Positions 40,609 to 50,555 of a stretch of DNA of 64,000 nucleotides are shown in pieces. A model generated the notes under the pieces. The model made no database searches, was not told where the DNA came from, and was given only the letters and a program-made list of their open reading frames with translations. The position numbers and the translations under genes are program-made. How positions within the stretch are numbered: position 1 is the stretch's first letter; every line of letters begins with the position of its first letter. Origin of the DNA: Escherichia phage KM01; sequence record PV018827; one strand, given 5' to 3'.

Positions 40609-41028
40609 TCAAGATTCACTTTTCAGATACTCTGACCAGTCGCCAGATTCAACCAGAACATCTTGTTCTTCGTCGATATGATAAATCCAAGCGATAACAG
40701 TTTCACCTGAGTCCATCTTAACAGCAATCTGAGTACGCTGATAGAAGCTGTCTTCAGGGCTACGTTTGTTGTAACCTTCCAGTCGGTCATATGGACCTTC
40801 CAGACCTGCTTTGTCAGTAGCAAACACTTCTACACGAACAGGCTTATTGTTATTACTGTGTGCGAGAGAGATGCTCGGGAAGTAGGAACCACCGTAACGG
40901 AACAGATCGAAGTTATCTTCAGTCCAACCTTCGCCAATAGACTTAGCACCAGCTCGATCATTAACTAAATAGTTAGCTTGACCACGACGAAGAGAACCAT
41001 AAGTTGCTACGTAAATTACTTCTGACAT
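40609..41028 (-). CDS. gamma-glutamyl cyclotransferase-like (AIG2/GGCT fold) protein
   Basis: N-terminal VATYGSLRRGQANY (YGS/TL..G motif) and size (139 aa) typical of the GGCT/AIG2 family. Confidence 0.55.
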   Translation of the reverse strand: MSEVIYVATYGSLRRGQANYLVNDRAGAKSIGEGWTEDNFDLFRYGGSYFPSISLAHSNNNKPVRVEVFATDKAGLEGPYDRLEGYNKRSPEDSFYQRTQIAVKMDSGETVIAWIYHIDEEQDVLVESGDWSEYLKSES

Positions 41029-41729
41029 TTTAAATACCTTTCCAGTCTTTCATGATGTTTTCAATGTAAGCACACTGCTGATCAGTGGCTCCTGTTACAA
41101 ACACTTCTAACCCCAACTGCTCACAGAAGGGATTAAGAATCAATATTCTGGTTTGCCCATACGAGTGATGCTCTCGGTAGATAACACACCCAGCATCCCA
41201 TACAGAGTCAATGGCTTTACTCAATCTTTCATGTTTCATAAAACCTCCAGCTTATCCGAACTAGCCTCCTCTTTCGAAGAGGCTAAAGCAGATTACTCTG
41301 TAATAAAGATTTTGATTACACCGCAGATTGCTGCACTCTCAAATACTGCAACAGCTTCACTTCCCTGAAAGAAGGCCACTTTGCCGTCAGAGAAGTTAAA
41401 CATGTCAGCATCTAGGTCCATAGCTCGCATTTCGCCAGCGGCATTTGTATCTTTAAACAGAACTTTATACTTATTCACAGATATGTTACTCCCTTGTCTT
41501 GTTGTGCTTCAGTGATGATACGTTCTACACATTCCATAGAGTATTTATCACCACGTTTCAGGAAAGTCACAATTGCAGAGAATTGATTACCAATCATTCG
41601 CTGATTAGTAATACCCCATTCCTCACACAACTTACGCAACTCTTTACGAGAGCCTACAATCAGAGGCTCTTTTTGTTCCATCATTCCATTTTGTACTAGA
41701 TCTTCCAATGAAAACATATCCATATATCC

Positions 41730-42923
41730 TTAGTAGTTTACAACAGTGCCATCATTCAGGGTAAGACTGTTAATCTGCAACACACGACCTAACTGACGAT
41801 CACTAATTGGTGCGTTCCATCCAGAGCGGTAGAAGTTACGACCGCAGAAGAACAAGATCACATTACTTGCTACAGTTGAACCATTCTCAGGGTGCTTGAT
41901 ATTAGCGATGTAATAACCACGACGTAAAGTACGACGGGTTACAGGGTTGATCTCTAACCCTTGTTCTTCCACTTGCATTGTTTCAGGAACAGGCTCCGAA
42001 GACTCTTCAACAACTGGTTCAGCTGTCAATGCAAAGTTCTCGTCATCTGCTGATTCAGCAAACTCTTCCACTTCTTCAACAGGCAGTTCGTAAGCAACGC
42101 GGTAGTCAGGATCAACACCAGAGAAACTCTTAACAAACTCAACGATGTTGTGAGTGTAAGTTTCCAGAGTTGTTCCAGTCAGGCCCGGAGCTGTATTAAC
42201 TTCCAGAACCCAAGCGTTAGTACCTTTGCTAATCAGGTCAACAGCACCGAAGTTCAAACCCAGAGCAGATACAGCTTTGTGGGCTTGAATCAGAACCTGA
42301 TCAGGCGGCGCATCTTGGAAGTTTGAGGAATAAACCCAACCAGTATGATGGTTTCGAACGTCTTCGCGATAGGAAGGGTCTTCACGATAACCATTACGGC
42401 GAATCTTTTTCTGAACATAGGTGATAACACCTTCAAACACATGAACACGCCATTCACGACGTGGGCCTAGAATGCCACGGGTATAGAGAGGGGCGGGAGC
42501 TACACCTTCACCCTGAAGACGAACAGTGATACCTTCTCCAGAATGACCGTTCAGAATAGCACGTTCATAAACAACACTATCCAGAGTCCACTCTGAAGCC
42601 TGAGCAGCACTGTCTGTGTATTCTACAGTATGTACCCCAGCAGCTTCCAAAGTTTGAAATGCTGTCATTTTGTTAGCGGCTCGGTTCAAGGCAACCACAG
42701 AGTTCAATACAGTTGCACCGCCAAAGAAAGCATCATTATATCGACGGTTTCCATAGTTGACAACAATATCACCAACTCGAGAACGATAACGAGAGCCTTC
42801 TGATACCAGAGACATTACGTTAGCATTTAAGCGAAGTTCCTGAATCTTAGTGTTAATTGCAGAAGTAAGTTCACGAACTGAATCAGAAGGGCCATAAGGA
42901 AGAACACGGATACGAGTAGTCAT
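41730..42923 (-). CDS. ATP-grasp family ligase with C-terminal extra domain
   Basis: 397 aa; C-terminal ATP-grasp core LNFGAVDLISKGTNAWVLEVNTAPG; followed by acidic linker and ~100-aa unassigned domain. Confidence 0.6.
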   Translation of the reverse strand: MTTRIRVLPYGPSDSVRELTSAINTKIQELRLNANVMSLVSEGSRYRSRVGDIVVNYGNRRYNDAFFGGATVLNSVVALNRAANKMTAFQTLEAAGVHTVEYTDSAAQASEWTLDSVVYERAILNGHSGEGITVRLQGEGVAPAPLYTRGILGPRREWRVHVFEGVITYVQKKIRRNGYREDPSYREDVRNHHTGWVYSSNFQDAPPDQVLIQAHKAVSALGLNFGAVDLISKGTNAWVLEVNTAPGLTGTTLETYTHNIVEFVKSFSGVDPDYRVAYELPVEEVEEFAESADDENFALTAEPVVEESSEPVPETMQVEEQGLEINPVTRRTLRRGYYIANIKHPENGSTVASNVILFFCGRNFYRSGWNAPISDRQLGRVLQINSLTLNDGTVVNY

Positions 42924-42925
42924 TG

Positions 42926-43150
42926 TTAGATACCTTTAAGTTTAAGAATTTCGTTACGAGTTTTTTGAATCTGAGCTTCAATTTCGAAGTAGTCGTTGAA
43001 CGCATCGTTCTCTACTTCATCGGATGGTGCATCAATCAGACCGAAAGCGAACGGATACAGCTTTCGCTGCTCCGTTACTAATTCGATATGAACCCCCATA
43101 TAATACTGTAGGAGAGTGATCTTTGGTTTCTTAGGAACCAGATTTGACAT
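42926..43150 (-). CDS. small protein within amidoligase cluster
   Basis: 74 aa; translationally coupled between ATP-grasp and the next ORF. Confidence 0.3.
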   Translation of the reverse strand: MSNLVPKKPKITLLQYYMGVHIELVTEQRKLYPFAFGLIDAPSDEVENDAFNDYFEIEAQIQKTRNEILKLKGI

Positions 43151-48974: not shown

Positions 48975-48984
48975 AACTAACCTT

Positions 48985-50181
48985 TTATTTTCCTAAAAAT
49001 AATCCGCTCATAATACCATCCCACTCAGAGGACGGAATCACTGAATACTCCGAACTTTGGTCCAGAGTTCCACTACTAAATCGCTGAATGATGTTGTAGA
49101 TGTTGAACAGGTCTTTAGCCTCGGCACGAATGCCGTAGATTAACCTGTTAGCTGTTTTCTCATTTTTAGACACGCGACGGGTAAAGTTAACCAAAAGATT
49201 ATCACCTTTAAGTGTCTCTGACCCGTCTTTTACTAGATCGGGGTGCATCACTGGCAAGAACATTGAGTTGTTAACTCGTAATTCTGCTGTTTCATCATTC
49301 TCGTAATGAATCCACTTAAAGTCTTCATCACGGAAATGACCGCATCCATCTCTATATGACTGTTGACGCCAAGGCACTTGAAATGCTTCAGCGTATTTAT
49401 CAGCCATGCCGACTGTAAATAGCGACGCTGGGAAGATACAAGCATCCCAATCGTTACCAACCAGAGTTGCTTTCTTTTCTCCCAAGAGGTTAGTGTAAGT
49501 GCTAACCATTCGTGAGTAAACATAAGCCTGAAGGATTGTCCAGCCTTCAACCAACCATTTGTGGAGGAAGGTTTCAACTTGACTCTCTTCATCTTCACAA
49601 TAGAAGGTTCGATCTAACATCAAATAGAATAGACAACGATCAGCAGGAACATTTTCAGTTGCTACCCCCATAAAACCTTTATCGTGCCAGCGTAAACAGG
49701 AGGGACGATCTTTGTCCACAAATGCTTCCATAGCTTCCAGTACAGCACGAGGTGTGGTTCGATGTTCAGGGTTTTTGTCGTTCCAACGTTCAATGTTATT
49801 CTTAGGGGGCGTGTCTTCATCTTCATACGAACACCAACTTAAAGCTTCAGCTACATGCTTTTCATCACGCCAACGTCTAAAGCCTAACATCTTCATATGA
49901 GTTCCAGAGTTCCAGATATGCTTGATTTTACACATATCCATCTCTCGGCTTAACAGGAACTCTTCCCCATCAGCACTACGAACGTTAGCTTCTTCATGCC
50001 ACACTCGAACGTGCATATTCCATCCATGAGTTGCCTCATACATGTTAGGGTCGAAGTAGTCATCATCTTCGTCGTCTTCATCAACGCCACCATTATAGTT
50101 GCGAAGCTGAAGGAACCCATAACAAGGAGGATTAACCGTTAAAACATTACCTTCAGTATCTTCTAATGTTACTGGAAACAT
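48985..50181 (-). CDS. hypothetical protein with acidic stretches
   Basis: 398 aa; DEDDEDDDY acidic stretch; Trp/His-rich. Confidence 0.3.
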   Translation of the reverse strand: MFPVTLEDTEGNVLTVNPPCYGFLQLRNYNGGVDEDDEDDDYFDPNMYEATHGWNMHVRVWHEEANVRSADGEEFLLSREMDMCKIKHIWNSGTHMKMLGFRRWRDEKHVAEALSWCSYEDEDTPPKNNIERWNDKNPEHRTTPRAVLEAMEAFVDKDRPSCLRWHDKGFMGVATENVPADRCLFYLMLDRTFYCEDEESQVETFLHKWLVEGWTILQAYVYSRMVSTYTNLLGEKKATLVGNDWDACIFPASLFTVGMADKYAEAFQVPWRQQSYRDGCGHFRDEDFKWIHYENDETAELRVNNSMFLPVMHPDLVKDGSETLKGDNLLVNFTRRVSKNEKTANRLIYGIRAEAKDLFNIYNIIQRFSSGTLDQSSEYSVIPSSEWDGIMSGLFLGK

Positions 50182-50192
50182 TATACCAACCT

Positions 50193-50555
50193 CTATTGGT
50201 TTTTAATTAACTCAATCGACTTACGGATATAAAGAATATCTCGGAAGTTTCGATAGTTGTTCATAAATTGATGCTTCTGGAACTCAGCTTCTTCCAGAGC
50301 TTTCTTTGCTTCTGCGTAGTTTTTACGGGCAAGATGTACAACCCGCTCCGGTAACACGTTTGCACGATGGATTAGATACTTATGAGCTTTCATGTTACTT
50401 TGCTCACGAGCAATCTTACCTTTAGCAACCTTGATACCATTTGCAATCCAAGCAAGTTCTTGCTCAAGCTCATCGTTGGACATTCCACCGAGGTTTGATG
50501 CAACCTTGTTCAGAGTTTCAATATTAACGTTGCCCTTGATGGGACGTGTATTCAT
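50193..50555 (-). CDS. hypothetical helical protein
   Basis: 120 aa; AGGAG RBS; first gene downstream of the small TM ORF. Confidence 0.3.
   Translation of the reverse strand: MNTRPIKGNVNIETLNKVASNLGGMSNDELEQELAWIANGIKVAKGKIAREQSNMKAHKYLIHRANVLPERVVHLARKNYAEAKKALEEAEFQKHQFMNNYRNFRDILYIRKSIELIKNQ

Follow-up and report, generated by a model that had tools for sequence, protein, structure and literature searches.

Escherichia phage KM01 carries a copy of a widespread phage amide-ligase module that may work through a transient gamma-glutamyl group

Results and Discussion

Gene content of the locus

A 64,000-nucleotide stretch of DNA from Escherichia phage KM01 (sequence record PV018827; hereafter, the window) was analyzed with respect to a block of minus-strand genes at positions 40609-50555, which encodes a module of amide-bond-forming ligases, a glutamine amidotransferase, and a gamma-glutamyl-removing enzyme. 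A megablast search with this block matched 98 phage records, 65 of which had a query coverage of at least 80%; the Escherichia phages EK5, phiEc_1, SU10, and phiEco32 matched best, with 97-98% identity. Judged by its sequence, the window phage is a phiEco32-like Kuravirus (Gordonclarkvirinae), and the block is the counterpart of phi32_77 to phi32_89 of phiEco32, with the primase/helicase gene phi32_75 directly downstream in the transcription order. The minus-strand genes are densely packed with gaps of -20 to +11 nt, except for 79 nt before the amidotransferase gene and 53 nt before orf69. The original prediction, which was made from the sequence alone, had placed nine open reading frames (ORFs) in this block, and all nine are found where it placed them, tightly packed on the minus strand; its list left out six small genes of the span, including gp79 and gp82. 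The enzyme genes, for which the predicted domains (GGCT/AIG2, ATP-grasp, class-II amidotransferase, glutamine-synthetase [GS]-like amidoligase, and a second ligase) were all borne out by Pfam, PHROG, and conserved residues, are as follows.

40609-41028, minus strand: gp77, GGACT/AIG2-type gamma-glutamyl(amine) cyclotransferase (Pfam PF06094, 3.4e-17, 63.6 bits against a cut-off of 22.8)
41730-42923, minus strand: gp80, RimK-like ATP-grasp ligase (residues ~1-300) with a C-terminal domain (residues 316-397)
43367-45397, minus strand: gp83, class-II N-terminal-nucleophile (Ntn) glutamine amidotransferase (residues ~1-235) with a tail of ~440 amino acids (aa) (GATase_6, 1e-14, 55.1 bits against a cut-off of 27)
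45477-46580, minus strand: gp84, Amidoligase_2 with the GS fold (Pfam PF12224, 4.5e-8, 33.7 bits against a cut-off of 22; PHROG 7469, 6e-159)
47204-48010, minus strand: gp86, COOH-NH2 ligase type 2, GS/GCS2-like (Pfam PF14395, 2.3e-8, 34.0 bits against a cut-off of 25; PHROG 3815, 3e-118)

The catalytic residues were kept in all five enzyme families across 49-87 distinct homologues. In the gp77 family, Y10, G11, N19, and E84, the last being at the catalytic position, were 100% conserved. The Pfam ATP-grasp matches of gp80 were weak (Dala_Dala_lig_C, 5e-3; RimK, 1e-2) and scored under the cut-offs (16.8 versus 24; 15.9 versus 21); gp80 matched PHROG 2599 at 8e-188, and its ATP/Mg-binding residues K85, E157, R159, K173, D229, E241, and N243 were invariant in 77 homologues. 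Its nearest solved or curated relatives were RimK, alpha-L-glutamate ligases, and MptN, all of them far under the family cut-offs, and the extra C-terminal domain, as had been predicted, was recovered as PHROG 20552 (3e-58), which is a separate protein in other phages. The GS-like set of gp84 (E31, E33, E35, E58, H95, H97, E119, and R130) was invariant in 80 homologues, and about 36 residues of gp86, including D11, E13, E54, H142, H144, E200, and R202, were at least 93% conserved across 79 distinct homologues. The gp83 family keeps R28, H83, R85, T88, G90, H109, N110, G111, D128, and S129, and the zinc-ribbon modules that had been predicted for the gp83 tail correspond to three Zn-ribbon-like CxxC...CxxC motifs at residues 439-467, 486-514, and 640-670. 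Profile searches against Pfam and NCBIfam detected no synthase domain in gp83, which indicates that it needs a partner ligase. Among larger homologues of the module enzymes (a 750-aa ATP-grasp protein and amidoligases of 511-524 aa), Pfam found no informative domain fusions, and a suspected fusion of a gp85-like domain to the long amidoligase of Cellulophaga phage phi14:2 was not supported.

The coordinates of the amidotransferase ORF were predicted correctly, and its start codon required correction. The gp83 frame, which opens after a TAG codon with AAA ATT TGT, offers no ATG, GTG, or TTG upstream of residue 114; therefore, as read from the sequence, translation must start at the ATT at 45395-45397, right before the catalytic Cys codon. 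A Cys directly after the start is a requirement of an Ntn enzyme, and in about 75 of 77 homologues the nucleophile came straight after the start codon, which was ATG in 67 and ATT in 8, the latter being the 8 Gordonclarkvirinae-type loci. In other phages, the amidotransferase start was ATG, GTG, or TTG. On the minus strand at 45401-45430, there is also an in-frame 9-codon mini-ORF (ATG AAA GGG TTT ACC CTT CAG GTG GAT TAG), the stop of which lies 3 nt upstream of the ATT, and this arrangement is kept in phiEco32, SU7, and all 8 Gordonclarkvirinae-type viral loci. The mini-ORF and the ATT may act by termination-reinitiation or may keep expression low. The amidotransferases of SU7 (locus L011, 11645) and K4 (locus L007, 8905) were annotated from a downstream codon, by which the catalytic Cys1 was lost; the ATT-TGT start of SU7 lies 30 nt upstream of the annotated ATG, and the codon before the Cys in K4 is apparently ATC.

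Earlier description, synteny, and distribution of the module

The original prediction presented the block as a candidate for an undescribed system, which did not hold; the module has been on record since 2009, and the block is an archetypal copy of it. The Pfam family PF14395 even carries the name of phiEco32 ("Phage phiEco32-like COOH.NH2 ligase-type 2"), and, as relayed by later papers (PMC5498523, PMC11945000, PMC10580990), Iyer et al. 2009 and Hardies et al. 2013 described the cassette by comparative genomics in phiEco32, 7-11, LUZ24, PaP3, PA11, RIO-1, and CW02 and proposed a role in cell-wall modification. PMC5498523, which credits Iyer et al. and Hardies et al. 2013, describes a "peptidoglycan modification cassette" of seven genes that is kept in RIO-1, phiEco32, 7-11, PA11, tf, MR299-2, LUZ24, PaP3, and CW02; the passages concerned in PMC11945000 repeat this description for a LUZ24-like phage, and those in the 2023 paper PMC10580990 take up Iyer et al. 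again. The further statement of the original prediction, that no substrate or role has been demonstrated, agrees with the literature, in which we found none, PMC10580990 included.

Compared with the neighborhood of Iyer 2009 and the cassette of Hardies 2013, the block represents the same module with the five enzyme families in identical order, at 97% identity to phiEco32. In our count, the conserved members further include gp85, the gp87/gp88 family, and DUF7195, and we document an alternation of GGCT and Peptidase_C26, although the original papers may have noted such points too. What is added here is the strict co-occurrence across phages, the conserved partners, the kept catalytic residues, and the GGCT/C26 alternation.

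A tblastn search with the COOH-NH2 ligase found 306 phage records, including 121 of Pseudomonas, 93 of Escherichia, and 22 of Vibrio phages, the others including phages of Aeromonas, Proteus, Salmonella, Cronobacter, Cellulophaga, and Sinorhizobium. A scan of IMG/VR yielded 462 contigs with a relative of the ligase, and 79 of these loci were fetched for a census with local hidden Markov models (HMMs). All 79 loci had Amidoligase_2; the amidotransferase was detected in 77 and the ATP-grasp ligase in 72, with all misses at contig ends, followed by the gp85 family (64), GGCT (50), primase/helicase (28), and DUF7195 (20). The module genes were all on one strand in the fetched loci, and the usual order was ligase, gp85, amidoligase, amidotransferase, (DUF7195), ATP-grasp, GGCT, and (primase/helicase), a few loci being rearranged (e.g., L084, L085, L087, and L088). 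The clustering of these families is far beyond chance. Annotations and searches by phmmer and iterative HMMs also revealed the same enzymes in LUZ24, Cellulophaga phi14:2 (Crassvirales), Sinorhizobium phiM6, Vibrio Vp_R1, Citrobacter CVT22, Pseudomonas K4, Vibrio WD615, Cronobacter vB_CsaP_009, Aeromonas APT65, and SU7, and in most of these ten phages the module sits a few kb upstream of a primase/helicase or primase gene. Thus, the profile searches confirmed the predicted families rather than assigning the genes to unrelated ones, and the genes were found to be syntenic, not scattered, in close and very distant phages.

Among 100,044 bacterial and archaeal species genomes (one per species), only 14 loci with the ligase were detected, all with the same module and mostly with a phage primase/helicase, and all in bins of metagenome-assembled genomes (MAGs) or on tiny, contaminant-like scaffolds. 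At the sensitivity of this pattern-seeded genome scan, the ligase family is virus-restricted and is not a host-derived auxiliary metabolic gene. This occurrence bears on an alternative explanation of the block, namely that it consists of ordinary housekeeping enzymes, such as GlmS and the ribosomal protein S6 glutamate ligase, which boost host metabolism. The product names of gp83 in RefSeq and of gp80 in RefSeq and PHROG point in that direction; however, the ligase family occurs only in phage-like contigs among the species genomes, gp83 reached just 42.1 bits against a cut-off of 381 and 35.7 against 418 for GlmS (TIGR01135 and NF001484) over residues 1-196 only, with no SIS domain, and gp80 reached 25.2 bits against 331 for the RimK equivalog and 31.6 against 143 for rimK_fam. 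We regard the housekeeping explanation as extremely improbable.

Several observations were made on individual loci. A Kuravirus contig 99% identical to the window was binned in a MAG of an "uncultured Peptococcaceae", and the Herbiconiux daphne assembly includes three short scaffolds with related phage sequence of 47-64% identity to the ligase; both cases (L091-L094) are likely contamination or mis-binning. HNH homing endonuclease genes are repeatedly inserted between module genes of different phages, leaving the core genes intact (L011, 8528-8998; L004, 11546-11989; L008, 7325-7741 and 12649-13146; and ORF24 of UFV-P2). An expanded module with two GGCT, two class-II amidotransferases, and one Peptidase_C26 is present in phiM6 (L004, 3990-16976).

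Alternation of two gamma-glutamyl-cleaving enzymes

The modules of K4, CVT22, and WD615, which are without GGCT, instead encode a Peptidase_C26 that scored above the Pfam cut-offs, and both enzymes are present in phiM6. Peptidase_C26 is the family of gamma-glutamyl hydrolase and PuuD. When counted over the 83 loci that reach the ATP-grasp gene, GGCT only was present in 51, C26 only in 22, and both in 5, resulting in a gamma-glutamyl cleaver in 78 of the 83. The mutual exclusivity gave a Fisher p of 6e-11, which is indicative only, as phylogeny was not corrected for. The alternation of two unrelated cleavers of gamma-glutamyl amides in the same module suggests that the pathway makes a gamma-glutamyl amide and later strips the glutamyl group.

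Conserved partner proteins

The original prediction had treated its nine ORFs as one system and had left four of the encoded proteins unassigned. gp85, gp87, gp88, and gp89 indeed match no Pfam, NCBIfam, or PADLOC family, and none of 10 proteins tested matched PADLOC-DB at E<=0.01. The grouping as one system stood for gp85 and gp87/gp88, which, along with the unlisted DUF7195 protein, are conserved partners of the enzymes, and not for gp89, which is lineage-specific and is listed further below. The conserved partners are as follows.

43131-43364, minus strand: gp82, 77 aa, DUF7195 (Pfam PF23825, 4.7e-17), directly after the amidotransferase gene
46577-47194, minus strand: gp85, 205 aa, always between the two GS-fold ligases
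48003-48974, minus strand: gp87, 323 aa, directly upstream of the COOH-NH2 ligase gene with an 8-nt overlap
48985-50181, minus strand: gp88, 398 aa, paralogue of gp87 in a family of ~300 aa, upstream of the COOH-NH2 ligase gene

The partner gp85 is probably non-catalytic and has a predicted small beta-barrel at its N-terminus, a conserved basic loop PxR...KG, and a YKGxxVG motif. In gp87, Cys26 and Arg130 are nearly invariant. An iterative HMM built from gp87 converged on 65 proteins, which come from 49 of 90 loci; one copy ends -88 to +19 nt from the ligase start in most of these 49 loci, and the recurrence of this position beside the ligase start independently validates the homology; just 23 cluster representatives of the family were matched among 1.84 billion proteins. 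The same HMM recruited gp88 at 1e-18 to 2e-49, and a Foldseek search with the gp88 model (predicted local distance difference test score of 88.8) matched two paralogues each in the phages GAP52 and LAh_8. Because the iterative HMM and Foldseek both link them, gp87 and gp88 are considered paralogues of one module family, although the direct hhalign comparison of the two gave no match and the link came via intermediate sequences and Foldseek. A homology of gp87/gp88 to gp14/gp15 of LUZ24 was also considered, but hhalign returned nothing, and the LUZ24 proteins stay unlinked. The pattern of gp82 resembles, by eye, that of a ribbon-helix-helix protein, and homologues are present at the same position in LUZ24 (gp20), VpR1, vB_CsaP_009, APT65, and SU7.

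Proposed mechanism and candidate targets

On the basis of the protein families, we propose with moderate confidence a generic mechanism of cytoplasmic ATP-driven amide ligation and amidation with a transient gamma-glutamyl handle, in which the target is left unspecified. The module would operate as a cytoplasmic assembly line for amide bonds that is driven by ATP, a location suggested by the need of the ligases for ATP and by the translations, in which no module protein has a signal-like hydrophobic N-terminus. Both GS-fold ligases and the ATP-grasp ligase would convert a carboxylate to an acyl-phosphate and then join it to an amine, a gamma-glutamyl amide being formed in at least one of these ligase steps. 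The amidotransferase would hydrolyze glutamine and hand the ammonia to one of the ligases, by which a carboxylate would become a carboxamide, and the ligases and the amidotransferase would probably form one complex scaffolded by gp85 and the Zn-ribbon tail. In the last step, the gamma-glutamyl group would be removed, as 5-oxoproline by GGACT or as glutamate by Peptidase_C26, and would thus have served as a transient handle or protecting group on the amine, in a manner comparable to that in the butirosin (BtrJ/BtrG) and Puu pathways. The module is transcribed together with the middle (replication) genes; gp79, which lies inside the block, is a middle-gene product (PMC8948821).

Known pathways offer partial parallels to this mechanism. 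The butirosin pathway (ATP-grasp BtrJ, AIG2-like BtrG, and carrier BtrI) shares with the module an ATP-grasp ligase paired, and usually adjacent, with an AIG2/GGACT cyclotransferase, and by analogy this pairing suggests that the module, too, attaches a gamma-glutamyl group and takes it off later. The acyl-carrier protein, pyridoxal phosphate-dependent decarboxylase, and acyltransferase of that pathway were not found in the module; a butirosin-type carrier protein (PP-binding) had no match among the 16 ORFs of the span. The Puu/Pau pathway (GS-like PuuA and the Peptidase_C26 PuuD) shares the combination of a GS-fold ligase with a gamma-glutamyl-removing enzyme, and so does the glutathione or gamma-glutamyl cycle (GCL, ATP-grasp GshB, and GGCT), in which the removing enzyme is GGCT. 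In contrast to both, the module is without oxidase or dehydrogenase steps, its GS-fold ligases belong to different, uncharacterized families (PF12224 and PF14395), and it has a third ligase and an Ntn amidotransferase besides. With MurT/GatD, asparagine synthetase B/LtsA, and EgtC, it shares a Cys1 class-II Ntn domain that has all glutamine-binding motifs and no fused synthase, which points to a separate ATP-dependent ligase as the partner or, alternatively, to the action of a gamma-glutamyl amidohydrolase. Unlike MurT/GatD and AsnB/LtsA, gp83 has neither a PP-loop synthetase nor a Mur-ligase domain and carries the ~440-aa Zn-ribbon tail instead.

Some points weigh against the proposed mechanism. 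We infer the chemistry only from superfamily membership: no characterized member of Amidoligase_2 or PF14395 was found, a PDB sequence search with the GS-fold ligases gp84 and gp86 detected no solved structure, and the literature yielded no functional work on PF12224, PF14395, DUF7195, or a phage amidoligase. A weak EgtC match of gp83 was seen in the profile search, and the Ntn domain could be an EgtC-like amidohydrolase instead of an ammonia donor. The GGCT versus C26 pattern is confounded by phylogeny, and 5 of the 83 modules have neither enzyme inside the fetched flanks. Moreover, the roles given to gp85, gp87/gp88, and DUF7195 are guesses, and the gp85 model is of low confidence with only a weak SH3/Tudor-like match.

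With respect to the target, a small peptide-like metabolite or amine is our tentative choice for the proposed mechanism. A cytoplasmic cell-wall precursor and a protein are both rather unlikely targets, and a nucleotide or DNA is an improbable one.

The role proposed in the literature is one in the cell wall (Iyer 2009 and Hardies 2013, as relayed by the papers cited above). The module would then modify peptidoglycan precursors, by linkage or amidation of the stem peptide, for superinfection exclusion or in preparation for lysis, and the identified hosts of the module being Gram-negative is in line with this. The stem-peptide chemistry includes the ATP-grasp enzyme Ddl, the amidation by MurT/GatD and AsnB/LtsA, and a gamma-linked glutamate, all of which favor the proposal. 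However, the module includes no Mur-ligase domain, membrane or secreted component, or recognizable UDP-sugar-binding domain, and in most of the loci examined it adjoins primase/helicase genes, not lysis genes. We also know of no step in peptidoglycan synthesis in which GGACT or C26 takes a gamma-glutamyl group off an amine, and this counts against a function in the cell wall, which we consider unlikely.

It is also conceivable that the module tags a protein or peptide with glutamate or a short peptide, in a manner similar to that of RimK or pupylation, GGACT or C26 being the eraser of the gamma-glutamyl-lysine isopeptide. Two established facts are favorable to such tagging: the Pup ligase is a GS-fold ligase, and GGACT has epsilon-(gamma-glutamyl)-lysine as its canonical substrate. 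The ATP-grasp ligase is closest to the protein and cofactor glutamate ligases of the RimK family, and the appended binding-type domains (the Zn ribbons, the predicted beta-barrel of gp85, and the C-terminal domain of the ATP-grasp ligase) would suit a protein substrate; however, minimal modules (K4 and CVT22) are without most of these domains, and no match to Pup ligase, transglutaminase, or Alpha-E was obtained at E<=0.1. No small protein that resembles a tag, with Glu, Gln, or Gly conserved at its terminus, was found, and DUF7195 proteins differ at their C-termini. As candidates for a small tag or carrier protein, gp81 and gp82 were rejected on inspection, as neither a conserved terminal residue nor a carrier motif was present. 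Protein tagging is an explanation to which we give little weight.

DNA modification and restriction resistance

Gordonclarkvirinae in the BASEL collection were reported to be remarkably resistant to restriction-modification, including EcoRI and EcoRV in vivo, with no known modification pathway, and a deaminase and a nucleotidyltransferase were suggested there as a hint of DNA modification (PMC11990801). This resistance would be explained if the module built an amino-acid-derived adduct on a DNA base or nucleotide. The window has 12 EcoRI sites (13.5 expected), 28 EcoRV sites (32.5 expected), 7 EcoKI sites, and 93 EcoP1 sites, and the EcoRI and EcoRV counts near expectation indicate that the loss of sites is no explanation of the resistance. 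Furthermore, the module adjoins primase/helicase and nucleotide-metabolism genes in most of the loci examined, and viromes pair amidoligase and amidotransferase genes with thymidine-hypermodification genes (PMC8989533).

However, no known base-activating or DNA-targeting enzyme (5-HMUDK, aGPT-Pplase, DpdA, or TET/JBP) was seen here, in line with PMC11990801, and of the thymidine hypermodification set (dUMP hydroxymethylase, 5-HMUDK, and aGPT-Pplase) none was seen among the ORFs scanned at 33.4-50.6 kb, where only ThyX and a dCTP deaminase turned up. The DNA of U17, a LUZ24-like phage bearing the module, was cut by 11 of 16 restriction enzymes (PMC11945000), and that of phiEco32 was restriction-profiled and subcloned (PMC9965538). 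In addition, the window avoids CCWGG (2 versus ~80 expected), GATC (137 versus 301), PstI (0 versus 14), and SacI (0 versus 16), and this strong avoidance indicates that the DNA is not generally protected. The avoidance is strong but selective, NcoI sites also being missing (0 versus 6 expected) and HpaI, DraI, and SspI sites being near expectation. DNA hypermodification was therefore rejected as the best explanation, being outweighed by the digestion of U17 DNA, the mapping and subcloning of phiEco32 DNA, the site avoidance, and the lack of a base-activating enzyme among the ORFs scanned.

Thus, bulk DNA hypermodification is unlikely, and an adduct made by the module as the cause of the restriction resistance is poorly favored. 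Because EcoRI and EcoRV resistance was reported despite near-expected numbers of sites, some other anti-restriction mechanism must exist. A product that is a new covalent DNA or nucleotide modification, or a small-molecule inhibitor of restriction or another defense, made via a gamma-glutamyl amine shuttle, would explain the resistance of the subfamily to type I, II, and III restriction and would be relevant to LUZ24-like therapy phages, but we consider it a long shot.

Significance

Of the multi-enzyme gene sets of virulent phages that lack an assigned function, this module is one of the most widespread. Its carriers amount to 306 phage isolates and at least 462 viral contigs and include coliphages, Pseudomonas therapy phages, marine podoviruses, and one crAss-like phage, and no cellular counterpart was found. 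Because it takes ~5-10 kb of a 45-77-kb genome and the active sites are kept in five enzymes, the module must matter for infection. Two lines of a LUZ24-like phage that had evolved independently each gained missense changes in the amidoligase and the amidotransferase (PMC11450229), and these parallel changes suggest that the module affects infection fitness. Kuravirus isolates that plate on E. coli K-12 exist (BASEL Bas86-93), which makes the question of function now tractable, and the GGCT/C26 alternation leads to a testable prediction, namely that a gamma-glutamyl amide intermediate piles up in a GGACT mutant.

Lineage-specific genes and neighboring features

The span also includes the following small genes, which, along with gp76 and gp78, are confined to Gordonclarkvirinae-like phages.

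41475-41723, minus strand: gp79, 82 aa, counterpart of phi32_79, between the ATP-grasp and GGCT genes
42926-43150, minus strand: gp81, 74 aa, Gordonclarkvirinae-specific, between the DUF7195 and ATP-grasp genes
50193-50555, minus strand: gp89, 120 aa, helical, the first sizeable gene of the block, lineage-specific

The homologues of gp89 were confined to Gordonclarkvirinae-like loci (10 of 90). As a middle-gene product of phiEco32, gp79 inhibits the sigma70 holoenzyme and activates gp36-dependent transcription (PMC8948821). Its occurrence was limited to Kuravirus-type phages, and 7-11, GAP52, and every distant module were without it; gp79 lies inside the span but is no part of the module, being an unrelated transcription factor. 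At 41030-41239, between gp78 and the GGCT gene, the window has a 69-aa ORF with no family match, where phiEco32 has only a 69-nt gap, and this lack of a phiEco32 counterpart accounts for some relatives covering 98% of the query.

No gp36-type promoter (TAATGTATA) was detected near the block. Upstream of gp89, a 50-aa hydrophobic ORF on the minus strand (50558-50710) corresponds to phi32_90 and stops 2 nt short of the gp89 start, and a terminator-like hairpin with a T-run is present on the minus strand at 50737-50754. A second stable hairpin (45449-45469) is located in the 79-nt gap that separates the amidoligase and amidotransferase genes. Downstream of the block, 36733-38103 encodes a polymerase-beta-type nucleotidyltransferase with a weak PolyA_pol head domain, followed in the transcription order by a dCTP deaminase (36190-36723), a ferritin-like protein (34616-35227), and ThyX (33419-34075).

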